A DNA stretch of 64,000 bases from Planctomycetota bacterium (GTDB taxonomy: Bacteria > Planctomycetota > UBA1135 > GCA-002686595): positions 130,596-194,595 of the forward strand of contig JAWKUH010000006.1 of assembly GCA_041398665.1 (NCBI GenBank), given 5' to 3'. Positions 1,668-56,480 of the stretch are shown piece by piece. A program made the position numbers and the translations under genes. The notes under the pieces were generated by a model, which was given only the letters and a program-made list of their open reading frames with translations, had not been told where the DNA came from and searched no databases. Position 1 is the stretch's first letter. Every line of letters starts with the position of its first letter.

Positions 1668-4090
1668 GTGATCGAAGATCGGCGGGCGGACCGCAGAAAG
1701 GCTCGCGCCGATGCCGACAGAGGAGCGATGGGCTGGGCCCTCCTCGTCGGACTCGTGGCTGCGCTGGGTGCGGCGCTCCTCGGCGTCGCGCTGGTCCGTC
1801 GCAGTCGCCGCGAGCAGCACGGGACGCTGCACGAACGGCGCCGCGCGGAACGCACCGGTGCGGCGAGGGCGGAGCTCCAGCACCCCGTCGTCGACCTGAC
1901 GCGCTGCCTCGGGTGCGGCACGTGCGTGCGCGCGTGTCCCGAGGAGGGCGTGCTCGCGCTGCTGCACGGGCAGGCCGTCGTCGTGCGCGGCTCGGGCTGC
2001 GTCGGGACGGCGAGCTGTGCACGCGAGTGTCCGACCGGAGCGATCACGGTCACGCTCGCCGATCTCGCGACGCGGCGCGACGTGCCGGTGCTCGACGAGG
2101 GACTCGAAGCGGTGGGGCGCCCCGGTCTGTTCCTCGCGGGCGAGGTGACGGCGCACGCGCTCGTGAAGACCGCGGTCGACCACGGCACGCTGGTCGCCGC
2201 GACGGTGGCGGAGCGCGCGCAGCGCGAGGGCGCGGCGCGCGAGACCGGCGTGCTCGACCTCGCGATCGTCGGCGCGGGTCCGGGCGGACTCGCGTGCGCG
2301 CTGGAGGCGAAGCGTCTCGGGCTCGACTTCGTCCTGCTGGAGCGCGAGAGCGACCTCGGCGGCACGGTCGCGCGCTACCCGCGCCGCAAGCTCGTCGCGA
2401 CACGACCCATCGACCTCCCGCTGCACGGTCGGCTGCCCGAGCGCACCTACCTCAAGGAGGAGCTGATCGAGCTGTGGCGCGGGCTCGCCGCGGAGCACGA
2501 CCTGCCCGTCGTGTGCGACTCGACGTTCGAGTCGCTCGACCGGGACGACGCGGGCACCTACACCGTGCACGCGAGCACCGGCGAGGTGCGCGCACGCAAC
2601 GTGTGCCTCGCGATCGGGCGGCGCGGCGTGCCGAACCGGCTCGGCGTCCCGGGCGAGGACGCGCCGAACGTCGCGTACAGCCTGCTCGACGCGGACGCCT
2701 ACGAGGGCGAGCGCATCCTCGTCGTCGGCGGCGGCGACAGCGCGGTCGAGGCGGCGCTCGGTCTCACCGCGCGCGGTGCGAACGAGGTCACGCTGAGCTA
2801 CAGGCGCTCCGACTTCTTCAGGCTCGAGCCCTCGAACGAGCGCCGCATCCGCGAGGCGGCGGCGAGCGGGCGCGTCACGGTGCTGTTCGAGAGCGAGGTG
2901 CTCGAGATCGACGCGGGCGAAGTGCGCCTGCTCGCGCGTTCGGCGGACGTGGCGGGTCGCGGCACGGGCCGCACGAGCACCGACGGAGCCCCGAGCCTGG
3001 TGCCGGGCGGTCCGGGGCGCGTGCACCACGGCGCGTCGCACGAGACGCTCGAACGTCGCGTCGCCGTCTCGACCGAGGCGCGCGCCGAGCTCGTGCTGCC
3101 GTGCGACCGCGTGTTCGTGATGGTCGGCGGCACGCCGCCGATCGCACAGCTCGAGGCGGCGGGCGTCAGCTTCGACCCGACGCTGCGCCCGGCGGCGCCG
3201 GAGATCGGCGAGCAGGGCAGCGGCCTCGTCCGCGCGCTCGGCGCGGGCTTCGCCGTCGCGCTGTTCGGCCTCGCGTTCGCGCTGTGGCACCGCGACTACT
3301 ACCTCCTGCCGACGTTCGAGCGCGCGGCGTCGCCGAAGCACGACCTCCTGCGGCCCGGACTCGGACTCGGGCTGTGGCTCGGGGTCGGGTCGATCGCGCT
3401 CGTCGTCGCGAACCTCGCGTACGTGCTGCGCCGCTCGCCGCGCTCGCGCGTGCGCTTCGGGTCGCTCGCGAACTGGATGACGGTGCACGTCGCGACGGGC
3501 GTGCTCGCGCTGCTCACCGCACTCGTCCACTCCGGGATGGAGCCGCGCGACACGGTCGGGGGCCGAGCGCTGTGGGCCATGGTCGCGCTGTTCGCGACGG
3601 GAGCCGTCGGGCGCTACCTCTACGCCTACGTCCCGCGGGCGGCGAACGGGCGCGAACTCGAACTCGCCGAGATCCGCGGCCGACTCGCGCGTCTGGCGGA
3701 GGGCTTCGTCCGTGTCGACGCGCGACTCGCGGCGCTGGTGCGCGACGAGACGCTGGAGCTGGTCGAGCGGCGGCAGTGGAACACGTCGTTGCCGGCGCGC
3801 CTGCTCGCGCTCGTCGGCGCGGAGACCGGGCTGCGCCGACTTCTGCGCCGCGTGCGGACCGAGGGCGCCGCCGCCGGACTCGCGCAGGACCAGATCGACG
3901 AGGTGACGGAGCTCGCGCGCCGCGCGCACCGCTCGGCGCTCGCGACGGCGCACATCGACGACCTGCGCGGGATCATGGCGAGCTGGCGCTGGCTGCACCG
4001 CTGGGCGCGCTGCTCCTGCTCGTGCTCGTCGCGCTGCACGTGGTCTACGCGCTGGCGTACGGCGGCTACCTCGCGGGAGGCGCGCGGTGA
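1668..4090 (+). CDS. Membrane-bound fusion oxidoreductase: N-terminal TM helix, two 4Fe-4S ferredoxin-type CxxCxxCxxxCP motifs, FAD/NAD(P)-binding pyridine-nucleotide-disulfide-oxidoreductase-like domain, C-terminal 5-TM domain with conserved His. Apparent 1-nt frameshift near 4003-4008.
   Basis: Frame of ORF 1668..8069 gives CLGCGTCVRACPEEG and CVGTASCARECPTG, GAGPGG and GGGDSAVE dinucleotide-binding motifs, then TM helices (FALWHRDYY, WMTVHVATGVLALLTALVHSG). The last TM helix and stop are read in the frame of ORF 1367..4090 (LLLLVLVALHVVYALAYGGYL*). Start could alternatively be M at 1728. GTGA overlap with next gene. Confidence 0.65.
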
Positions 4091-16639: not shown

Positions 16640-18184
16640 TCAGTTGTGCAGCGACTCCGTGCGCTTCACGAGCAGGCCCTTGAGCCGGCCCATGACGTTG
16701 CTGTGGATCTGGCAGACGCGGCTCTCCGTGAGCGCCAGCATCTCGCCGATCTCGCGCATCGTGTGGCCGTACTGGTAGTACTGCTCGATGATGAAGCGCT
16801 CCTTGTGCGTGAGGGAGCGCGTGATGAACTTCATCAGGTCGCGGCGGTTGAGCTCGTGGACGGGGTCCACCGCGTCGTGGTCCTCGAGGACCTCGACCTT
16901 CTCGACCGCGCCGTCCTCGTCGTCGTCCCACTTCTCCGAGAGGGAGAACATGGCCTTCGCCTGGGACTCGTTGAGCTCCTTCGCGAGCTCGTCGTGCGTC
17001 ATGCCGAGCACTTTCGCGAGCTCGGAGTGGGTCGGCTCGCGCCCGAACTCGCCGGTGAGCTGCTGGAGCGCGCGTTCGATCCGGCTCCACTTGATGCGCA
17101 CGAGGCGCGGCACCCAGTCCTGCGAGCGCAGTTGGTCGAGGATCGAGCCGCGGATGCGGGTCGAGCAGTAGGTCTTGAACTTGATGCCGCGGTCCGGGTC
17201 GAAGCCGCGGATCGCGTCCATCAGTCCGAACTGCCCCGCGCTGACGAGGTCGTCCAGCTCGATCGACTTGGGCAGCGTCTGGAGCAGGCGCTCCGCGATG
17301 TAGCGCACGAGCGGGTAGTGGCGCTCGATCAGCTCGTTGCGCAGTCGCTCCAGCTCGGGCGACGTGATCTCGCGCTTGCGCGACGTGACCTCGGGCGAGT
17401 CCTTGGTGACGCCGAGCTCCTCGGCCATCTCGACCATGAGCCGATCGCTCTCGACCCGGTAGGCGTCCCACAGGTCGTCCGTCGAGACGTCCGCCATCTC
17501 GTCGTCCGGCGGTTCGACGTCGACGGAGTCGTCCTCCTCCTCGATCTCCTCGGCCTCCGCCTCGGAAGCCTCGAGTTCCTGGTCGACGGCCGCCTCGGCG
17601 TCCTCGTCGGTGCGCATGAGTTCGGCCGGTTCCGTGCGCTCCTCCGACCGCGACCTGGACGGCAGCGCGGCCTTGGCCTCCTTCGCCGGCTTCGCCGCGG
17701 CCTTCTTCGACGAGCCGGCCGCCTTCGTGGCGGCCCCCGACTTCGACGAACCGGTGGCGCCGGCGGCCTTCGTCGACTTCGCGGCGGCTCGGCCGCGGGC
17801 GCGCTCGGGCACGATCTCGTTGGTCTCCGTCAACTCGACCTCGGTCCTGCTCTTCGACTTCGTGTTCTTGGAAGCGGCGCTCGCCGACTTCTTCTTCGAG
17901 GACCCGGTCTTCGCCTTCGGCGCCGGCTTCGCGGACCCGGCGGCAGCCGACTTCGCAGGCTTCGACGCCTTCGAAGTCGCTTTCGCGGGTGCCTTCGCGC
18001 CGGCCTTCTTCGCGCCGGCGGAGCTCTTCGCGACCTTGCTCGCGGACTTGCTCGCCGAGCCCTTCGACGCCGCGTTCGACCTCGTGGTCGAGCCGCGCGA
18101 CGCGGTGCTCGGGGAAGCTTTGGTCGACCGCTTCTTCGAGCGATCGGCGGACGTGCTGCGGGCGGAAGAGCGCTCGGCGGCCAT
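16640..18184 (-). CDS. FliA/WhiG-family (sigma-28-like) RNA polymerase sigma factor with ~280-aa Lys/Ala/Ser-rich histone-H1-like N-terminal extension and acidic linker
   Basis: C-terminal half has FliA-type regions 2 and 4 (DLVSAGQFGLMDAIRGFDPDRGIKFKTYCSTRIRGSILDQLRSQDWVPR, TMREIGEMLALTESRVCQIHS). N-terminus is AK(S/P)-rich low complexity (AKKAGAKAPAKATSKASKPAK...) then EEIEEEDD. Confidence 0.8.
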   Translation of the reverse strand: MAAERSSARSTSADRSKKRSTKASPSTASRGSTTRSNAASKGSASKSASKVAKSSAGAKKAGAKAPAKATSKASKPAKSAAAGSAKPAPKAKTGSSKKKSASAASKNTKSKSRTEVELTETNEIVPERARGRAAAKSTKAAGATGSSKSGAATKAAGSSKKAAAKPAKEAKAALPSRSRSEERTEPAELMRTDEDAEAAVDQELEASEAEAEEIEEEDDSVDVEPPDDEMADVSTDDLWDAYRVESDRLMVEMAEELGVTKDSPEVTSRKREITSPELERLRNELIERHYPLVRYIAERLLQTLPKSIELDDLVSAGQFGLMDAIRGFDPDRGIKFKTYCSTRIRGSILDQLRSQDWVPRLVRIKWSRIERALQQLTGEFGREPTHSELAKVLGMTHDELAKELNESQAKAMFSLSEKWDDDEDGAVEKVEVLEDHDAVDPVHELNRRDLMKFITRSLTHKERFIIEQYYQYGHTMREIGEMLALTESRVCQIHSNVMGRLKGLLVKRTESLHN

Positions 18185-18265
18185 GGTGGATCCCGTCCCT
18201 GCGCGTTCGACCCTGAACCCGCGGGGACGTCAAGGATCGGGCATCCGCCGGAAAAACCTTCGGCC

Positions 18266-29531: not shown

Positions 29532-30374
29532 ATGAGCAGCATCCTTCCCGCCGCCGTCGTCGGTATCGCCAGCGGATCCCTCGCCGCCGTCGCCACGGTC
29601 TTCATCCTCGCGCCCACCCCCGGCGCGGCCCACGAGGCCGCTTCGATCTCGCCGAAGGGCGCCGAGGTCGAAGGTGACGTCCGGGACGTGCTCGCACGCC
29701 ACGACAAAGATATCCGCACCCTCCGCGACGACTTCCAGGTCGCGAACACGAGCCTCGACCAGAAGCTCGACGAGGTGCTCGCCCAGCTCAACCGCCGCTC
29801 GCTCCCCGTCGAGGGGACGACGACCGGCGGCTCCGACGTCGAACTCGCCGCCGCCGTGCGCGACGTCATGACGAACGACGGCGGCACGCTCCTCACGACG
29901 GACCCGACGTTCGACGCCGCGGTCGCGGACGCGATCACGCGGATCGAGGAGCAGAAGCGGGCGGACGAGGCCGAGGCGCGCCGTCAGCGCGAGCTCGACC
30001 AGATCGAGGACCGCCTCTCGAAGATGCGCGACGACCTCGGACTCGACCAGTACCAGGAGTCCGAGATGCGCACGATCATGATCGACAGTCTCGACCGCAT
30101 GACCGAGATCCGCGACCAGATGCGCAGCGGCGACTTCGGTCGCGACGACATGCGCACGCTGTTCTCCGACTTCCGCACCGAGGTCGACGGCAAGGTCCAG
30201 AAGGTCCTCGCGCCCGACCAGTACACGAAGTACCAGGAGTCGAACATGAGCTCCTTCGGCGGCTTCGGCGGCGGACGCACGCGCGGCGGCAACAACGGCG
30301 GGGGTCCGGGCGGTTTCGGCGGCGGAGGCTTCGGAGGCGGCGGCTTCGGCGGCGGCCCCGGCGGAGGGAATTGA
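29532..30374 (+). CDS. Hypothetical membrane-anchored protein with coiled-coil region and Gly-rich (GGFGGG) C-terminal tail
   Basis: Start MSSILPAAVVGIASGSLAAVATVFILAP (TM). Tail GGFGGGRTRGGNNGGGPGGFGGGGFGGGGFGGGPGGGN. Followed by a weak hairpin at ~30396-30413. Confidence 0.5.
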   Translation: MSSILPAAVVGIASGSLAAVATVFILAPTPGAAHEAASISPKGAEVEGDVRDVLARHDKDIRTLRDDFQVANTSLDQKLDEVLAQLNRRSLPVEGTTTGGSDVELAAAVRDVMTNDGGTLLTTDPTFDAAVADAITRIEEQKRADEAEARRQRELDQIEDRLSKMRDDLGLDQYQESEMRTIMIDSLDRMTEIRDQMRSGDFGRDDMRTLFSDFRTEVDGKVQKVLAPDQYTKYQESNMSSFGGFGGGRTRGGNNGGGPGGFGGGGFGGGGFGGGPGGGN

Positions 30375-41235: not shown

Positions 41236-41416
41236 GCCGCGCGGAAGCCCGCGGCGCAGGAGACGGAGGGGCTCGCGGGCGCTACGATGGCCGGACTCGG
41301 GCGCGCGCACCAGGCTCGCTCGGAACCGCAACCACGCGAGCGCCGCGACCCCTCCGCGCGACTCGCGGATCGACACGGCGCGCGAAGCACGCCCTCACGA
41401 AGACGCCACCTCCCAC

Positions 41417-42478
41417 ATGGACATCACCGAGATCCCGGTCGACGGCTACGAGCGCGTCGCCCGCTGCCGCGACCAGGCCACGGGGCTCCACGCGATCATC
41501 GCGGTGCACGACACCACCCTCGGGCCCGCGCTCGGCGGCATGCGCATGCTGCCCTACGCGTCGGAGGACGAGGCGCTGTTCGACGTGAAGCGCCTCGCGC
41601 GCGGCATGACGTACAAGTCGGCGGTCGCGGAGACGGGTCTCGGCGGCGGCAAGTCCGTCGTGATCGGCGACCCCGGCGAGGTGAAGTCGCCCGAGCTCTT
41701 CCAGGCGATGGGTCGCTTCGTCGACAGCTTCGGCGGCAAGTACATCACCGCCGAGGACATGAACATCGGCATCGCGGACCTCGAAGAGGTGCGCAAGTCG
41801 ACGAAGTACGTCACCGGACTCTCGCGCGAGGCCGGCGGCTCGGGCAACCCGAGCCCCTACACCGCGCGCGGCGTGGTGCAGGGGATGCGCGCGGTGCTCC
41901 GCGAGGTGTTCGGCGACGAGTCGTTCACCGGCCGGTCCGTCCTGATCCAGGGCGTCGGCGCCGTCGGCGGTGCCATGGCGCGGATGCTCGTCGAGCGCGG
42001 TGCGAAGGTCCTCGTGTGCGACCTCAACGAGAAGCGCGCGAAGGACCTCGGGCGCGAGCTCGGCGTCGACGTCGTCGCCGACAAGGGCCACCACGCGCTC
42101 GAGGTCGACGTGTACGCGCCCTGCGCGCGCGGCGCCGGCGTCAACGACCAGACCATCGGCGAACTGCGCTGCAAGGCGATCGCGGGCTGCGCCAACAACG
42201 TGCTGCTCGAGGAGCGCCACGGCGACGAGCTCAAGGAGCGCGGGATCCTCTATGCCCCGGACTACGTGATCAACGCGGGCGGCATCATCAACGTGTCGGT
42301 CGAGGTCCAGCCCGGCGGCTACGACGAGAAGCGCGCGGTCGAGCGCATCGACCGGATCTACGACAACCTCCTCGAGGTCTTCGCCATCTCGCGCGGCGAG
42401 GGCATCTCGACCAACCTCGCGGCGGATCGCCTGGCCGAGCGCCGACTCGCCGAGGCGCGCCAGCAGCAGAACGTCTGA
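41417..42478 (+). CDS. Glu/Leu/Phe/Val dehydrogenase-family enzyme (leucine/valine dehydrogenase-like)
   Basis: 353 aa. Catalytic GGGK (ETGLGGGKSVVIGDP), Rossmann GVGAVGGAMARMLVERGAKVLVCD. Confidence 0.8.
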   Translation: MDITEIPVDGYERVARCRDQATGLHAIIAVHDTTLGPALGGMRMLPYASEDEALFDVKRLARGMTYKSAVAETGLGGGKSVVIGDPGEVKSPELFQAMGRFVDSFGGKYITAEDMNIGIADLEEVRKSTKYVTGLSREAGGSGNPSPYTARGVVQGMRAVLREVFGDESFTGRSVLIQGVGAVGGAMARMLVERGAKVLVCDLNEKRAKDLGRELGVDVVADKGHHALEVDVYAPCARGAGVNDQTIGELRCKAIAGCANNVLLEERHGDELKERGILYAPDYVINAGGIINVSVEVQPGGYDEKRAVERIDRIYDNLLEVFAISRGEGISTNLAADRLAERRLAEARQQQNV

Positions 42479-42499
42479 CACGTCCGGACGTCGAACGAA

Positions 42500-42542
42500 C
42501 CGCGGGAGACGGGCGAGCAGAGGGCTCGCCCGTCTCCCGCGG
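42500..42542 (+). terminator. GC-rich perfect hairpin (19-bp stem ccgcgggagacgggcgagc / gctcgcccgtctcccgcgg, loop agagg) downstream of the dehydrogenase gene; intrinsic-terminator candidate without a T-tract
   Basis: Perfect inverted repeat read directly from the sequence, 20 nt after the stop codon. Confidence 0.45.
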
Positions 42543-42685
42543 CTCCGTTCCCGCGCCGTCTCGACGCGAGGTCGCTCGATGCGCGCTGACCGCCGATTGA
42601 CCCGGACTTCACGCTCCCTTCGTCCGGCTTTGCGAGCGTGTTGACGTTCCGGCGCACCGCGCCGCCGTCCGAAGCCCCGAAGGTC

Positions 42686-43708
42686 ATGCGCCACCAACCG
42701 AGCCACCGCCTCGCCCTCGTCCTCGCCCTCGCGTCCGCTCTCGCGAGCTGCGGCACGCCGAACCTCTCCGGCGACCCGTCGACGGGCGCACAGCTCGCCC
42801 CGCAGGCTCGCGCGGAAGGGCCCGCCGCGAACGCACCGTCGACGCAGCCCGCCGCGGCGCGCGAGGAGACGGAGGACGACTCGCCAGCACCGCTGCCGCA
42901 CGCCGTCTACCGCAAGGACGGCTTCTTCGTGAGCGAGGCGTCGTCGAAGCGCGGTCGCCTGCTGTGGGTCTTCGCCGAGGGGTCGCAGGACCTCGCCGAG
43001 TGGCGCCGCGACGGCGAACTCGCGAAGAGCACGAGCCTGATCGGCGCGGGGCCCGCCGGAGCGACGCTGCGCTCGGGCGACCGCGACACGCTCCTCCGCT
43101 ACCTCGGTGCGAAGGACGGCTTCTGGGTCGACGTCGGCCACCTGGGTCGACGCGAGTTCCTGTGGGTGTTCCGCGAGGACTCGGACGAGCTGCGCGAGTA
43201 CGCCGCGAACGGCGAGCTCGGCAAGAACGTCACGCTCATCGGCGCGGGACCGCTCGGCGTCACGCTGCGCGGCGGCGATCGCGAGACGCTCCTCGAGTAC
43301 GCCGGCACCAAGCCGGGCTACGTCGTCTCGCTCGGCCACATCGGTTCGCGCGAGTTCCTGTGGGTCTTCGAGGAGGGCTCGGCGGCTCTCGACGAGTTCC
43401 GTGCGAAGGGCGAGCCCGCGCAGAGCGTCACGTTCGTCGGCGGCGGTCCGCAGGGACTGACGCTGCGCGGTGCGGATCGCGGAACGCTGCTGCTGTACGC
43501 GGCGCGCAAGCCGGGCTACCACGTCGAGCTCGGCCGCCTCGGGAACCGCGAGTTCGTCTGGGTCTTCGAGGAAGGCACGCCGGAGCTCGAGCGCTTCCTC
43601 GCGAGCGGCGACCCCACGCAGAACGTCACGCTCGTCGGAGAAGGTCCGATGGGGGCGACGCTGCGCGGGCCCGACCGCCGGACGCTGCAGCGCTACCGCG
43701 CGCTCTGA
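42686..43708 (+). CDS. Lipoprotein with four tandem ~60-aa internal repeats, hypothetical
   Basis: Lipobox LASALASC. Four repeats of pattern G..V.LG.LG.REFLWVF.E.S..L.E....GE....VTLIGAGP.G.TLRG.DR.TLL.Y...KPG. Confidence 0.6.
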   Translation: MRHQPSHRLALVLALASALASCGTPNLSGDPSTGAQLAPQARAEGPAANAPSTQPAAAREETEDDSPAPLPHAVYRKDGFFVSEASSKRGRLLWVFAEGSQDLAEWRRDGELAKSTSLIGAGPAGATLRSGDRDTLLRYLGAKDGFWVDVGHLGRREFLWVFREDSDELREYAANGELGKNVTLIGAGPLGVTLRGGDRETLLEYAGTKPGYVVSLGHIGSREFLWVFEEGSAALDEFRAKGEPAQSVTFVGGGPQGLTLRGADRGTLLLYAARKPGYHVELGRLGNREFVWVFEEGTPELERFLASGDPTQNVTLVGEGPMGATLRGPDRRTLQRYRAL

Positions 43709-43727
43709 GTCGACGTCGGAGCCGCAC

Positions 43728-43777
43728 GAACGCCGGGAGCCCGGTGCACCGCGAGGCGCACCGGGCTTCCGGCGTTC
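43728..43777. terminator. 20-bp near-perfect inverted repeat (gaacgccgggagcccggtgc / gcaccgggcttccggcgttc) between convergent genes; bidirectional terminator candidate
   Basis: Read directly; one mismatch. Confidence 0.4.
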
Positions 43778-43808
43778 GCGCGGGACGTCGTCCCGCACCG
43801 TGTCCCGT

Positions 43809-44735
43809 TCACTGCTTGCGCAGGAACGCGACGAGGTCCGCCTCGAGCTCCTCGAGGCCGTAGTCCGGCACCGTGAGGCACTTGTAGACGAGCTTCTCGA
43901 GCGCCGGCGGCGAGTTCGGGTTGAGCTCGGAGGGCGGCGTGTAGGAGAGGAAGTAGGACAGGCTGAGGCGTTCGACCTCGCCGCCCTGCTCGCGACCCGC
44001 GTACTTCCACGGCGCGTCCTCGAAGGGCAGCGCACCGGTGAGGATCTCGTAGAGCATCACGCCGATGCCCATGACGTCCGCCTTGCTCGTCATGAGCAGC
44101 AGCGGGTTGTAGTGCGGCGTCGTCGAGACCAGCGCGCGCTCGCCGTCGCGCATCGCGGGGTCGATCATCACGACCGAGCCCGACGGTTTGACGATGACGT
44201 TCTCCGGCTTGAGGTCGCCGTGGTAGGCGAGCGAGCCGCTCCGCTCGAGGCGCATGAGCGTGCGCACGATCGAGAGGAACCAGTTGAGGCGGATGCCTTC
44301 GAGCGCACGGATCTTCTCGCGCAGCGTCTTGCCCTGCACGTAGTCCATGACGAGGACAGGGCGTCCCTCGTGGTCGATGACGTCGCGCAGGCGAACCACG
44401 TTCTGGCTGCGGACGCTCTCGAGCAGCGAACCCTCGTGGCGCAGCAGCGAGTCGATCTCGTGCAGGTCGAGGAAGTCGATGCGCGCTCCGTCGTTGCGGA
44501 AGAACACGGCTTCGCCCGGCGACTCGTCCGGACTGATCCAGTCCGGCGAGCGACGGTTGGTGACCTCGAGGCAACGCGTCAGATAGCGACCGCCGCCGGC
44601 CATGTCGCCGACCTTGAGGGCGACGCGGTTCCCGCGCGGGTCCTCCGCCAGATAGACGCAGGAGAACGCGCCGCGGGCGAGGAAGTCGACGACTTGGTAG
44701 CGACCGATGGCGGCGCCGGTTTCGAGCCTGATCAT
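43809..44735 (-). CDS. Hanks-type serine/threonine protein kinase (kinase domain only)
   Basis: GRYQVVDFLARGAFSCVYLA...VALK. Catalytic loop HGDLKPENV; no obvious TM or sensor domain. Confidence 0.75.
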   Translation of the reverse strand: MIRLETGAAIGRYQVVDFLARGAFSCVYLAEDPRGNRVALKVGDMAGGGRYLTRCLEVTNRRSPDWISPDESPGEAVFFRNDGARIDFLDLHEIDSLLRHEGSLLESVRSQNVVRLRDVIDHEGRPVLVMDYVQGKTLREKIRALEGIRLNWFLSIVRTLMRLERSGSLAYHGDLKPENVIVKPSGSVVMIDPAMRDGERALVSTTPHYNPLLLMTSKADVMGIGVMLYEILTGALPFEDAPWKYAGREQGGEVERLSLSYFLSYTPPSELNPNSPPALEKLVYKCLTVPDYGLEELEADLVAFLRKQ

Positions 44736-48400: not shown

Positions 48401-50088
48401 ATGCGCATCGCCCTCGTCACGACGCCGCCCTCCGTCCGATCCGGCATCGGCGACTACACGCGCCACCTCGTTCCCTACGTGAGGGAGCACGCCGACGTCG
48501 ACGTCTACGTCGCGCCGCCGCTCGCGGGCGAGCCGCTCGACGAGGCGCTCGGCGGGGCGTCGCGCGCTCCGTCGACGATCTCGACCCGGTGCAGTACGAC
48601 CACGTCCTGTACCAGCTCGGCAACGAGTCGAACCACGCCTTCGTCGTGCGCGCGCTCCCGCGCCTCGGCGGGACCGTCGTGCTGCACGACTGGGTCCTGT
48701 TCGACATGGCGCTCGCCGCGTACCCGGCCATCGCCCGCGGAGGTCCGAAGGGCGCCGCGCTCGTCCTGCGCGAGGGCGGACTCGGTCAACTCGCACGCTA
48801 CGTCCGCAACTTCGCGGACCGCCGCGTGCAGAAGCGTCGTCCCGAGCGCGAGCCCGACCACACGTCCCTCGTGGGTGAGATCCTCGCGGGCTGGCACGCG
48901 CCCGAGGACCGCGGGCGCTGGACCTGCGACTTCGGCTCGTTCCGCGTGCCCGACCCGGACGCCGACGCGCTCGAGGTCGAGTTCCACGCGCCGCCGGGAC
49001 GCACCGTCACGCTCTGGCGCGACGGGGAGCGACTCGCCGGCTTCGTGACGACGCCGCAGTGCGCGGACACGACCTTCGAGATCGAGCTGCACCGTCCGAG
49101 CGACGCGCCGTTCGTGCTGCGGGCGGACCCCGTCGTCGTCACCGACGAGCAGCGGCGGTACGGCGACTCGCGGAGGCTCGGGACGTTCGTCAAGTCGATC
49201 CGCTACCGCAGCGGCGAGGCCTGGCGCGAGGTCGGTCTCGCGCTCCCGCCCGCCCACCACACGATCCCGGTCACGCTCTCGCGCGACCGCTTCGACCTCC
49301 CGCTCAACGGCTCCGTCCTCCGACACGCCGACTCGTTCATCGTGCACTCCGACTACGTCGGCGATCGCATCCGCGCGGAGCGCGGCGACCACGTGCAGGT
49401 GGGCCGCGTCTGGCACGGCGCCGAGGACCGCAGCGACGACCGCGACCGACGCGACGTCCGCTCGGCGCTCGGTCTGCCCGGAGCGTGGCGCGACGACTTC
49501 GTCGTCGTCAGCTTCGGCGGTGTGCAGCCGCACAAGCGGATCGACAAATTGCTCGACGGTCTGGTGCTCGCGCGCCGCGAACGCCCCGACATCCGACTGG
49601 TCCTCGCGGGCAAGGTCGCGGGCGACTTCTTCGACGCGGCGGACGAGGTCCGACGGCGTCACCTCGACGACGCGGTGCGCCTGACGGGGTTCGTGCCGGA
49701 GGAGATCGGCTGGGAGTGGCTGCGCGCCGGCGACCTCTCCGTGAACCTGCGCGGACCGACGTCGGGCGGCACGTCGGGCGGGATCTTCCAGAGCTTCGGG
49801 CTCGGTCGCGCCGTCATCGCGAGCGACGCCGCCGAGCAGCGCGAGCTGCCCGACGAGTGCACGCTCAAGGTGCCGCTCGGCGAGGGCGAGGTCGAAGCCA
49901 TCGCGCGCACGCTCGTCGACCTGCGCGACCACCCCGAGAAACGCGACGCGCTGGAGCGCGCCGTGCGCCGCTTCGTCGCGACGGAGTGCCACTGGCGGAT
50001 CCAGGCCGAGCACTACCTCGAGCTGCTCGAACGCTTCCGGCCCCCGAGGAGCTCGGGGCGGAGTCGGCCGCTCGTGGCGACGACGTGA
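48401..50088 (+). CDS. GT4-family (GT1-fold) glycosyltransferase; apparent 1-nt frameshift at ~48551-48570
   Basis: N-terminus MRIALVTTPPSVRSGIGDYTRHL in the frame of ORF 48401; the rest (DLDPVQYDHVLYQLGN...EX7E-like AEQRELPDE) in the frame of ORF 48589..50088. Frame change within ggcggggcgtcgcgcgc. Confidence 0.65.
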
Positions 50089-51644: not shown

Positions 51645-54329
51645 TCAGCGACGCTCGAGGTCGTCGCGCCAGCGCTGGAGCAGCGTCAGCGCCTGGATCG
51701 GCGTCGTCCGATCGAGGTCGAGCGCGCGGATCTCGCGTTCGACCTCGCTCTCCGGTGCGTCGAAGAACGAGAGCTGGCGCGGTGCGCCGGGACGCCGCTC
51801 GGGACCGCCGGGTTCGAGGTACGCCGACTCGTCCTCGAGGCTCGCGAGGACCTGGCGCGCGCGTTCGAGCACGGGCGCCGGCACGCCGGCGAGTCGCGCG
51901 ACGTGGATGCCGTACGAGCGGTCGGTCCCGCCCTCCTGGATCGTGTGCAGGAACACGATCTCCTCGCCCCATTCGCGCACGGCGACGGAGAGGTTGAAGA
52001 CGCCGGCGAGGCGGTCCGCGAGATCCGTGAGCTGGTGGTAGTGCGTGGCGAACAGCCCGCGCGCACGGACGGCCTCGTGGAGGTGCTCCACGATCGCCCA
52101 GGCGAGTGCGAGGCCGTCGAACGTGCTCGTACCGCGCCCCACCTCGTCGAGCACGACGAGCGAGCGCTCCGTCGCGTTGTTGAGGATGTTCGCGATCTCG
52201 ACCATCTCGACCATGAAGGTCGACTCGCCGCGGCTGATGTCGTCGCCGCTCCCCACGCGCGTGAAGATGCGGTCGACGACGCCGACGCGCGCCGACTCGG
52301 CCGGGACGAAGCTCCCGATCTGCGCGAGCAACGCGATCAGTGCGGTCTGGCGGATGTAGGTCGACTTGCCCGCCATGTTCGGCCCCGTGAGGATGCCGAC
52401 GAGACGACCGTTCGACGCGTCGCCGTCGAGCCGCGTGTCGTTCGGCACGAACGTCTCGCAGGTCGGCGAGAGCTCGATCACGGGGTGCCTGCCGCCGACG
52501 ACCTCGAGGACCGTCGAGTCGTCGACCTCGGGGCGGACGTAGCGGTTCGTCGCGGCGCACTCCGCGAGCGAGACCAGGGCGTCGAGCGTCGCGACCGCGT
52601 CCGCCGTCTCGAGGATGCGGTCGGTGTGCTTCGCGATCTCGTCGCGGAGCGCCATGAAGATCTCGTACTCGAGCTCCTGCGCGCGCTCCTCGGCGGTGAG
52701 GACCTTGGTCTCGAACTCCTTGAGCTCCGACGTGATGTAGCGCTCGGCCGTCTTGACCGTCTGCTTGCGCACCCACTCCGGCGGCACGCGGTCGACCTGG
52801 CCGCGGGGCACCTCGATGAAGTAGCCGAAGACCGAGTTGAAGCCGACCTTGAGGCCGTTGATGCCGGTGCGCTCGGCCTCGTCGGCCTGCATGCGCGCCA
52901 TCCACGACTTGCCGTCGCCCGCGATGCTGCGCAGCTCGTCGAGCCTCTCGTCGAAGCCGTCGCGCACGAGTCCGCCCTCGCGCAGCGTCATCGGGGGCTC
53001 GTCGACGACCGTCGTGAGCACGCGCTCCGTGACGTCCGTGAGCGGGTCGAGCCGTGCCAGGAGTTCGACGAGCAACGGCGCGCCGCGATCCTCGAGGAGC
53101 TTGCGCAGTTCGGGCACACGTCGCGTCGACTCCGCGAGCGCGCGCACGTCGCGCCCGTTCGCTCGACCCGTCGACACCTTGGCGACGAGTCGTTCGAGGT
53201 CGCGCACGTCGGAGAGGACGCCGCGCAGGTCCTCGCGCACGAAGGACTCCTCGACGAGCTCGGCGACGGCCGTCTGGCGCGCGCGGATCGTCCCGACGTC
53301 GCGCAGCGGAGCGAGGACCCACTCGCGCAGCATCCTGCCGCCCATCGGCGTCGACGTCGCGTCGAGGACGTCGAGCAGCGTGCCTTCGCGCCGCGACCCG
53401 CGCTGCGTCTCGACCAGCTCGAGCGTCGAGCGCGTCGCGCGGTCGAGCACGAGGTGGCGCGAGGGGTCGACGGGCTCGATGCGTCGCACGTGCTGGCACG
53501 CCGCCTTCTGCGTCTCCTCGAGGTACTCGACGAGCGCTCCCGCGGCGGGCACGACGGCCGATCCGTCGTCGACGCCGAAGCCGCCGAGCGTGCGCACGCC
53601 GAAGTGGCGCTCGAGCACGCGACGCGCGGCGCTGCGGTCGAAGCGCCAGGCCTCGCGGTCGCTCGCGAGTTCGTGGTGGAGTCGCTGGAACTCGGTGTGG
53701 ACCTGCGAGTCCGGGTCGAGCGAGTCGAAGGGGACGAGGACCTCGGCCGGCGCGATGCGCGCGAAGAGGTCGAGCAGTCCGGCGTCGTCGGTCTCGCAGA
53801 CCTGGAAGCGTCCGGTCGAGACGTCGACCCAGGCCACGCCGTTCCTCGCTCCTTCTCCTTCGCGGGCCGCGGCCACAGTGCGACGAGGTAGTTCGACGCG
53901 CGCGCGTCGAGCGCGTCCTCCTCCGTCAGCGTCCCGGCGGTGACGACCCGGACGATGCCGCGGTCGACGATACCTTGGTCTTCTTCGGGTCGGCGAGCTG
54001 TTCGCAGATGGCGACCTTGAAGCCCTTGCGCACGAGGCGCAGCAGGTAGCCGTCCACCGACCGGACGGGCACGCCGCACATGGGCAGCGCGGCCTCGTCC
54101 TTGTCGCGCTTGGTGAGCGTGATCCCGAGCTCGCGCGACGCGGTGACCGCGTCGTCCCCGAACATCTCGTAGAAGTCGCCCATCCGGAAGAAGAGCAGTG
54201 CGTCGGGCTGCTCGTCCTTCGCCCGCACTGCTCCATCATCGGCGTCTGCTTGCCGTCGCGGGCACCCGGGCCGGGTGCCCGCCCCGGCCAACTTCCGTCC
54301 GGCGACGCGGGTGGTGCTGCGGGGGTCAT
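51645..54329 (-). CDS. mutS: DNA mismatch repair protein MutS; N-terminal mismatch-binding domain carries three apparent 1-nt frameshifts (~54223, ~53970, ~53849)
   Basis: ATPase/clamp/C-terminal domains intact in one frame ([29 protein letters not shown]). N-terminal TPMMEQ..., [41 protein letters not shown] are distributed over three reading frames. Gene length is a multiple of 3, so the shifts cancel. Confidence 0.85.
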
Positions 54330-54542
54330 GTGGGTCTTCCGGGAGATTCGGGCGGGCGGCAGCGTACTCTGAGCGGCCCGCGTCGCGACCCGCGACGCGC
54401 CGTTCGCGACCCGACGTCCGTGCTCGCCGCCGACTTCCGACCCGAGACGCTCCGCGCTCCCTCCGACCGTCGTCACGACGCTCGTCGAGGCGTCCCTCCC
54501 GCCGCACCGCGCCGACGGAGGACCGCTCTCGTCGTCGCGTCG

Positions 54543-55800
54543 ATGTTCCTCGCCGTCGCGGCGTCGGGATGCGCGGGGTACCCCGAGCGCGCGGGTCGCG
54601 CACTCGCGCAGTACCGCGCCGGCGCCCTCGACGAGGCCGCGACGAGCTTCGAGTCGGGCGACGTCACGGACAGCGCGTTCCTCTCCGGCGCCGAGGTCGG
54701 GATGATCCGCCTCTCGGCCGGTGAGTGGGAGGCGGCGCGCGACGCGCTGACCAGGGCCGCGGAAGCGGCGCGCGACGCCGAGGAGAAGTCGCTGCTCTCG
54801 GTGTCCGAGGGCGCGGAGTCGGTCGGCACGCTGCTCGTCAACGACACCGTGGCGGCGTACACGGGCGAGGGCTACGAGCGCGTGCTCGTCCACGCCGCGC
54901 TCGCGATCGCCTACCTCGCGCTCGGCGACGTCTCCGGCATGCGCGTCGAGACGCGGCGCGCGAACCAGGTCCTCGAGGGCGAGGAGGCGCTGTACGAGAC
55001 GAAGTACGGCGCGGGCGGGCTCGGGCACCTCCTGTCCGCGGTGAGCTACGAGATGGAGCGGCGCCTCGACGAGGCCCTGATCGACTACCGGCGGATGGTG
55101 GAGAAGGGGGTCGGCCTCGAGATCGCGGGGCCGAGGCTGCGCGAGCTCGCGGACTTCTTCGGACGCGACGACGTGGCCGAACTCGTCGCGGACTACGAGC
55201 CGGCGGTGTCCACCGACGAGCCGTACGCGACGGTGTGGGTCCTCGGCGCGATGGGGCTCGCGCCCCAGAAGGTCGAACGGAGCCTCAACCTCCCGACGCC
55301 CGTCGGCTTCGTGCGCATGACGGCGCCGGACTACGTGTCGAGCGGCGGCGCGCGGACGCTCACGCTCGTGCTCCCCGACGCGGGTGAGTCCGTGGCCTGC
55401 ACGGTCGTCGAGGACGTCGACGCCGTCTCGCGCGAGAACCTCTCGGACCGGCTCGCCTGGATCGCGGCGCGGACGGCCGTGCGCGCCGGCATCCGCGCCG
55501 GTGTGCACGAGTACGTCGAGAAGGAGCACGGCGCGCTCGCCGCGTTCGGCGTCGACGTCCTCGGCCTCGCGCTGGAGCGCGCGGATCTGCGCTCGTGGCT
55601 CACGCTCCCGCGCGAGTGGCAGGCGGCGCGCGCCGTCCTGCCCCCGGGGGGCCCACACCCTCGAACTGACCACCTCCGGCGGCGACAGCGTCCGACTCGG
55701 TCGCTACGAACTGGAGGAAGGAGAGACCATGCTGATCTTCGCGCGTAGCGTGGACGGCTGGCTCGAAGCACACCCGATCGGCGGCCTCCGGGTGGAATGA
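54543..55800 (+). CDS. Lipoprotein, hypothetical (helical repeat-like); apparent frameshift at ~55641-55650 in cccccgggggg
   Basis: Lipobox AVAASGC. C-terminal beta-like segment [49 protein letters not shown] in the frame of ORF 55384..55800. Confidence 0.5.
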
Positions 55801-55835
55801 GCCGCCCCTGTCGCACACCCTCGCCACGAACCACG

Positions 55836-56480
55836 ATGAAACTCCTCCAACGCACCACCGTCCTCGCCGCCGCCGCGCTCGCCGTCCTCGCGACGAGCTC
55901 GTGCAGCAGTACGCGCTACGGCGACGCCAAGGCCGTCGAGACCGTCACCGTCGACTGGGGCTCGACCGACCTCCAGACGCTCGCCGGCGGGATGTCGGAC
56001 TCGCTCGTCGACGAACCGAACCTCCAGTACCTCGACCACTCCGGCAAGGGCGACGACAAGCGCGTCATCGTCTACTTCGGCGGCATCGAGAACCGCACCT
56101 CCGAGCACATCGACACGATCGCGATCCGGGACGCGATCCAGTCGACCCTGTTCGACTCGCGCAAGTTCCGCTTCGTCGCGGACACGGCGGGGCAGGACGA
56201 GATCGGCGACCAGGTCCGCTTCCAACAGGGCTCGGGTCGCGTCGACGTCGACCAGGCCAAGGCCTTCGGCAAGCAGCTCGGCGCCGACGTGATCGTCTAC
56301 GGCCGCCTCTTCTCGATCGACAAGCGCAAGGGCGCGAGCGTCGAGAGCCTCGGCACCCGGACGCAGGACGTCTACTACCAGTTCTCGCTGCAGTGCGTGA
56401 ACATCGAGACGAGCGAGGTCCTGTGGACCGAGACCAAGGACATCCGCAAGACGAAGCGGACCGGGCTGTTCGGTAGCTGA
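55836..56480 (+). CDS. LpoB-like lipoprotein (penicillin-binding-protein activator family), tentative
   Basis: Lipobox LATSSC. Pattern resembling the LpoB C-terminal domain (ADVIVYGRLFSI...YQFSLQCVNIETSEVLW). Followed by the perfect palindrome gcgaaacgcggcgtttcgc. Confidence 0.45.
   Translation: MKLLQRTTVLAAAALAVLATSSCSSTRYGDAKAVETVTVDWGSTDLQTLAGGMSDSLVDEPNLQYLDHSGKGDDKRVIVYFGGIENRTSEHIDTIAIRDAIQSTLFDSRKFRFVADTAGQDEIGDQVRFQQGSGRVDVDQAKAFGKQLGADVIVYGRLFSIDKRKGASVESLGTRTQDVYYQFSLQCVNIETSEVLWTETKDIRKTKRTGLFGS

Follow-up and report, generated by a model that had tools for sequence, protein, structure and literature searches.

Consensus indel errors as the probable cause of a mutS gene split over three reading frames in a planctomycete metagenome-assembled contig

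Natural mutators with defective mutS are known from clinical Pseudomonas aeruginosa and from enteric isolates, where they have been established by phenotype together with resequencing of the isolates, and loss of mismatch repair raises one-base insertions and deletions (indels) at mononucleotide runs in mutation-accumulation studies. In a 64,000-nucleotide (nt) stretch of DNA from a Planctomycetota bacterium (contig JAWKUH010000006.1, positions 130,596 to 194,595, assembly GCA_041398665.1; hereafter the window), a mutS gene on the minus strand has the coding sequence of its mismatch-binding domain distributed over three reading frames. The nearest finished genomes are those of Rohdeia mirabilis Pla163 and Engelhardtia mirabilis Pla133, whose MutS1 proteins are 73% and 67% identical, respectively, to the window protein over domains II-V and share with it the gene neighbourhood (window 40-64 kb), the N-terminal extension (MTP...) and Walker A and B. 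The source of the window is a metagenome-assembled genome (MAG), and homopolymer indels that fragment gene calls are documented in long-read consensus sequences, a problem that grows in MAGs when coverage falls under about 40-fold (Sereika et al. 2022, PMC9262707). On the sequence comparisons described below, the split mutS probably reflects consensus indel errors in the MAG contig and not a biological feature.

The mutS locus was divided by translation and homologue comparison into the following parts.

51645..54329, minus strand: mutS locus, with ATG at 54329 and stop at 51645-51647; the start is colinear with that of Rohdeia mirabilis mutS
54228..54329, minus strand: frame-A N-terminus of mutS, 34 residues, aligning with the Rohdeia N-terminus that starts MTPRNRTT
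53974..54225, minus strand: frame-B segment, 84 residues (RAKDEQ...GDFYEMF...KVAICEQ...KKTK), the core of domain I, which holds the Phe-X-Glu motif
53849..53973, minus strand: frame-C segment, 42 residues (GIVDRG...PAKEKE)
51645..53837, minus strand: annotated 730-aa MutS with domains II-V, beginning at GTG 53837 (VAWVDV...), just past the third junction

A single frame is open for 894 codons across the locus, and codons 35-160 of this frame are out-of-frame junk. The three-frame translation of 53700-54400 (minus strand) and the list of open reading frames (ORFs) place the N-terminus in three frames, the first 34 codons (frame A, including TPMMEQ) sharing their frame with the last 731 codons (to LERR*). 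The frame-B segment is 86.9% identical to Rohdeia over 84 aa. A hidden Markov model of codon-position GC content retraced the three frames at 51653-53847, 53848-53971 and 53972-54228. The remaining 2.2-2.3 kb or so of the gene lies in a single frame, colinear with relatives and with zero indels.

The domain content of the locus follows this frame structure. The ORF of 894 aa in the deposited sequence has no match to PF01624 (domain I) in Pfam, and the Phe-X-Glu motif (GDFYE) is missing from the in-frame translation. Domains II, III, IV and V (PF05188, PF05192, PF05190 and PF00488) were found in order at 85, 179, 102 and 286 bits, each score exceeding its curated cut-off, and Walker A (GPNMAGKST) and Walker B are both intact. 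When the N-terminus was spliced from the three frames, positions 1-112 of the 113 of PF01624 were matched (146.9 bits, E 3e-43), which is far beyond chance. Since bridging the junctions restores the full PF01624 match, the coding information for domain I is present but non-contiguous. After repair, the protein resembles MutS1 of Rohdeia and Engelhardtia in having a complete domain I with GDFYE; as deposited, it differs from them in that domain I stands in two other frames and the gene is short, over three points, of 6 nt that both orthologues carry.

The anatomy of the junctions was determined from a DNA alignment of the window with the mutS gene of Rohdeia mirabilis, anchored at the common ATG.

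54226..54227, minus strand: junction 1, window GAGCAGT----GCGG against Rohdeia GAGCAGTTCTGGCG; deficit of 4 nt
53973..53974, minus strand: junction 2, window ACCAA-GGTATC against Rohdeia ACCAAGGGCATC, GG standing for GGG; deficit of 1 nt
53848..53849, minus strand: junction 3, window AAGGA-GCGAGG, with no conserved match in Rohdeia; a single G (53849) stands for GG (GAG GCG AGG being needed); deficit of 1 nt

All three shifts are of the -1 type. At junction 1 an orphan TG (54227-54226) occupies the place where relatives carry 6 nt (TTCTGG, encoding FW), and two residues (FW, WW and similar) are found between Q and R in 28 of the 28 aligned relatives; the event may have been either a 4-nt loss or a one-codon deletion combined with the loss of one G from TGGCGG. 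The summed deficit over the three junctions is 6 nt (4 + 1 + 1), and frame A is thereby regained and open from ATG to stop.

The original prediction, which was made from the window sequence alone, had placed the conserved N-terminal motifs of mutS in three different frames, and this is borne out by the three-frame translation, the ORF list and Pfam. It had further described three one-base indels, each correctable by inserting one base. That description holds for junctions 2 and 3, where a single G is missing, and fails at junction 1, which is 4 nt short relative to all relatives; one base at this junction does restore the frame, and the protein is still one residue short. It had also stressed that the shifts compensate for one another. 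Their total is indeed a multiple of 3, but this carries little weight, because whole codons always result when three shifts share a sign (and net deletions account for five of the six frameshifts in the window) and because 31% or 93% of the off-frame stretches of 126 codons in this genome, according to the shift, contain no stop. On the latter ground, the open 894-codon frame was rejected as a sign of selection for a compensated protein. Likewise, G or C runs of at least 2 nt hold about 30% of positions (arithmetic from run counts) in the window, which has a GC content of 72% and zero Ns, and the short G/C-run context of the junctions, taken alone, is weak evidence.

Very long spurious ORFs are present in the window; one of 1342 aa (51645-55673, minus strand), for example, spans mutS and extends over the antisense strand of the gene beside it. 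Together with numerous tblastx matches in antisense or off-frame positions, they show that off-frame stops are rare at 72% GC. ORF length alone is no evidence of coding here.

For the analysis of decay, the three junctions were bridged, the repaired protein was aligned with 28 relatives, and the shifted segment (residues 35-163) was compared with the rest of the gene. The repaired segment keeps 49 of the 49 columns that are invariant among the 28 relatives and 62 of the 64 columns with a conservation of 90% or more, where intact relatives keep 61-64 when each is left out in turn; of the two non-matching columns, one is the placeholder set at junction 1 and the other is a Cys common to the two closest relatives. 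The ratio of non-synonymous to synonymous substitution rates (dN/dS, Nei-Gojobori estimates) between the window and Rohdeia was lower in the shifted segment (0.19) than in the remainder of the gene (0.35). The corresponding values were 0.23 and 0.39 between the window and Engelhardtia, and 0.33 and 0.44 between Rohdeia and Engelhardtia, both of which are intact. The coding sequence flanking the indels is thus under normal purifying selection, and relaxed constraint in mutS, looked for as an excess of non-synonymous change, lost invariant residues or scattered indels, was not found. With no decay and with the remainder of mutS in a single frame, the frameshifts must be either extremely recent or not real.

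The split was also compared with the wider lineage and with the public record. Among 153 related mutS loci that include the region, mostly from MAGs and metagenome contigs, 144 gave a single full-length match and 9 were cut by contig ends; in none of the 153 were the N-terminal 250 residues split between frames, so that the split is not a lineage feature. The best protein matches to the mutS ORF were all MutS, at 61-74% identity. Over the C-terminal 730 aa it matches NCBI MEZ5977309.1 ('MAG: DNA mismatch repair protein MutS [Planctomycetota bacterium]') with 100% identity; this protein is encoded on a contig of 214,796 bp and forms a singleton cluster. The next-best proteins are 71-74% identical and all have PF01624. 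Since the annotated MutS begins just after junction 3, the frameshifts belong to the deposited record. The window is syntenic with Rohdeia over 40-64 kb, and the mutS region is colinear with both Rohdeia and Engelhardtia.

Further frameshifts in the window were sought by flags of the GC-frame model followed by comparison with homologues, and three were found outside mutS.

4003..4005, plus strand: -1 frameshift, GGG for GGGG by comparison with homologues, in an oxidoreductase gene at about 1871-4090
48554..48557, plus strand: -1 frameshift in a glycosyltransferase gene (48401-50088), close to its 5' end, after residue 52 or thereabouts; GGGG in the window, GGGGG in Rohdeia
55646..55651, plus strand: +1 frameshift towards the 3' end of a TPR lipoprotein gene (54528 to about 55800) that is divergent from mutS; the site is a C5-G6-C3 tract

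The shift at 4003-4005 detaches the last transmembrane helix (GALLLLVLVALHVVYALAYGGY) of a Fer4/Pyr_redox/cytochrome-b561-like membrane oxidoreductase (4Fe-4S), and ten homologues of this protein run through the site in one frame (...WRWLHRW.ALL.VLLV.LHVV.AL.YG...). Rohdeia and Engelhardtia both have the glycosyltransferase, conserved and in synteny, and in tblastn the match switches frame at a point that lies between residues 81 and 84 in Rohdeia. In the TPR lipoprotein, the last 50 residues, which are conserved and were identified from the Engelhardtia homologue, run on in another frame of the window. In total, four otherwise conserved genes of the window carry six frameshifts, which amounts to about one per 10 kb, and five of these are net deletions. 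Three of the six lie in G runs with a true length of 4-5, and G or C runs of at least 4 nt make up about 2% of positions by the same kind of arithmetic.

The other flags raised by the GC-frame model were rejected as ordinary gene boundaries or low-complexity sequence; they lie near 833, 8056, 12525, 17645-18190, 26752, 28495, 30267, 32819, 35004, 41402-43718, 45300, 50491 and 51072. Two genes at 54528-56472, between mutS and the next conserved gene, occur in Engelhardtia mirabilis and are absent from the otherwise syntenic region of Rohdeia mirabilis. Elsewhere in the window, 42590-43811 (plus strand) encodes a predicted lipoprotein with four tandem repeats of about 62 aa (GRREFLWVF.EGS..L.E....GEL.K.VTLIGAGP.G.TLRG.DR.TLL.Y), and 29579-30374 (plus strand) encodes a small protein with a glycine-rich tail (GGFGGGRTRGGNNGGGPGGFGGGGFGGGGFGGGPGGGN).

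On the most probable reading, a consensus artefact, the organism would have an ordinary, intact mutS encoding domain I with Phe-X-Glu, the connector, core and clamp domains II-IV and the ATPase domain V. The consensus of the deposited contig would carry small indel errors, for the most part G/C runs miscounted by one base. Three of these errors would lie within the initial 480 nt of mutS, with others in at least three further genes of the window; the bases absent from the consensus would be present in the cells. These errors would move domain I into two other frames, and the public call would for that reason be a 730-aa MutS without domain I. The MAG source and the nature of the slips, which are mostly deletions in conserved, syntenic genes, speak for such errors, and the window resembles the indel errors of long-read or low-coverage MAGs described by Sereika et al. 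(2022, PMC9262707) in its one-base indels at G/C runs, which are chiefly deletions, and in the splitting of conserved genes on one MAG contig whose coding sequence is otherwise pristine. The statement of the original prediction that similar indels recur in other genes was confirmed against homologues at all three sites outside mutS. Its judgement that a consensus error is likelier than a pseudogene is likewise the best-supported reading, given the lack of decay and the other frameshifts; it is nevertheless unproven, and the lack of decay also fits a very recent event.

Several observations weigh against consensus error. In 200,000 simulations of uniform placement, the crowding of three frameshifts into 379 nt occurred with a frequency of 0.002, and that of four into 1.8 kb with a frequency of 0.001. 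The mutS sites lie in very short runs (1-3 nt), with one 4-nt gap, and in this and in their clustering they differ from the errors of Sereika et al. (2022, PMC9262707) and from the classical long-homopolymer error; outside mutS, the indels lie clearly at G4, G5 and G5-6 runs. No local cause is apparent between 53 and 56.5 kb, where the fine GC profile (0.66-0.77) shows nothing unusual, and a repeat search over 53.5-56 kb gave no notable repeats. A search of the window against Rfam gave no matches. A cell deficient in mismatch repair would also produce one-base indels at G runs, and the homopolymer signature alone is non-discriminating. Scans of genomes and metagenome contigs gave best identities of 73-74% and did not find a second assembly of the same species; in protein searches, beyond the 730-aa record of the contig itself, nothing was closer than 74% (ORF query) or 66% (repaired N-terminus). 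Look-ups of three proteins by exact product gave no match, and neither did a literature search for the protein accession. Uniform error and uniform neutral decay both fit the distribution poorly, and some local process is needed, for which a local drop in coverage, the collapse of strains or poor polishing of the stretch are plausible candidates.

A genuine, very recent inactivation of mutS, which would make the sampled population a natural mutator deficient in mismatch repair, was also weighed and is considered unlikely. In its favour, the clustering departs from the expectation for uniform errors. The first lesion would abolish mismatch binding, after which further indels would be neutral within mutS and would arise at a raised rate at G runs elsewhere; the product would be either full-length, with 126 scrambled residues where domain I should stand, or truncated at its N-terminus, and in neither form would it recognise mismatches. 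The lesions do exist in the deposited record, where annotation starts past junction 3, and a raised rate of run indels would tie them to the G4, G5 and G5-6 frameshifts in the three other genes. In these respects the locus is like the natural mutS-defective mutators, in that a frameshifted mutS would be null for mismatch repair and the run-associated frameshifts resemble the spectrum of cells deficient in it; it differs from them in resting on one MAG consensus, in the lack of a decay signal and in the crowding of three lesions into 379 nt. Neutral decay should spread, but all three indels fall within the same 380 of the 2685 nt of mutS and none in the other 2.3 kb (probability of about 0.003 under uniform neutral decay). 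Substitutions normally exceed indels, even in lines deficient in mismatch repair, and yet there is no excess of amino-acid change, as the retained invariant residues (49/49) and the dN/dS of 0.19 attest. The mutS sites (GG, GGG or non-repeat) are poor targets for slippage, and all six lesions, four of which lie in genes with conservation and synteny in Rohdeia or Engelhardtia, would have to be the majority allele in an environmental population, with four broken conserved genes fixed in it. If the lesions are real, the tight clustering might represent one error-prone repair patch and not independent hits. That an uncultured planctomycete population of the Saltatorellus clade has fixed a mutS allele in which three indels of the same sign scramble domain I while the 894-codon ORF stays open, and is a natural mutator with fresh G-run frameshifts in conserved genes nearby, is considered rather unlikely.

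A local cause is also what a mixed or chimeric consensus would supply, through the collapse of closely related strains or through poor polishing of a low-coverage stretch at about 53.8-55.7 kb; local misalignment would then yield a burst of small indels, of which some of the six events might be real polymorphisms and others errors. The presence of four of the six frameshifts within 1.8 kb points in this direction, a gap of 4 nt such as that at junction 1 would more typically come from problems of alignment or consensus calling than from a miscounted homopolymer, and the sequence comes from a MAG. Against it, the stretch is unremarkable in GC content (0.68-0.77) and has no repeats and no Ns, and its gene order matches that of Engelhardtia. 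As a separate explanation it is judged quite improbable, and it is in practice a sub-case of the artefact explanation. Programmed recoding, in which the ribosome or RNA polymerase would shift frame three times to yield full-length MutS, is extremely improbable. Its sole support is the shared sign of the three shifts and the return to the original frame, whereas none of the 153 related mutS loci requires a shift, relatives have ordinary in-frame sequence at exactly the three junctions, junction 1 is also short of one whole residue, and no long A/T run for transcriptional slippage was seen, homopolymers of at least 6 nt being rare and located elsewhere. To our knowledge, three consecutive efficient +1 events have no precedent. 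Programmed frameshifting was rejected on the ground that the shift sites are not conserved in any of these loci.

Either outcome is ordinary, being either no biological feature at all or a lesion of a known kind, a mutS frameshift, in a single MAG. If the lesions were real, they would represent an environmental mutator genotype caught very soon after the loss of mutS, a mildly interesting instance of a known phenomenon. If, as is probable, they are consensus errors, the public record under-annotates MutS in this organism and at least three other genes of the window are also mis-called, and it would be wrong to infer from the record a loss of mismatch recognition in the lineage, or to draw on it for pseudogene counts or gene-length statistics of this MAG.

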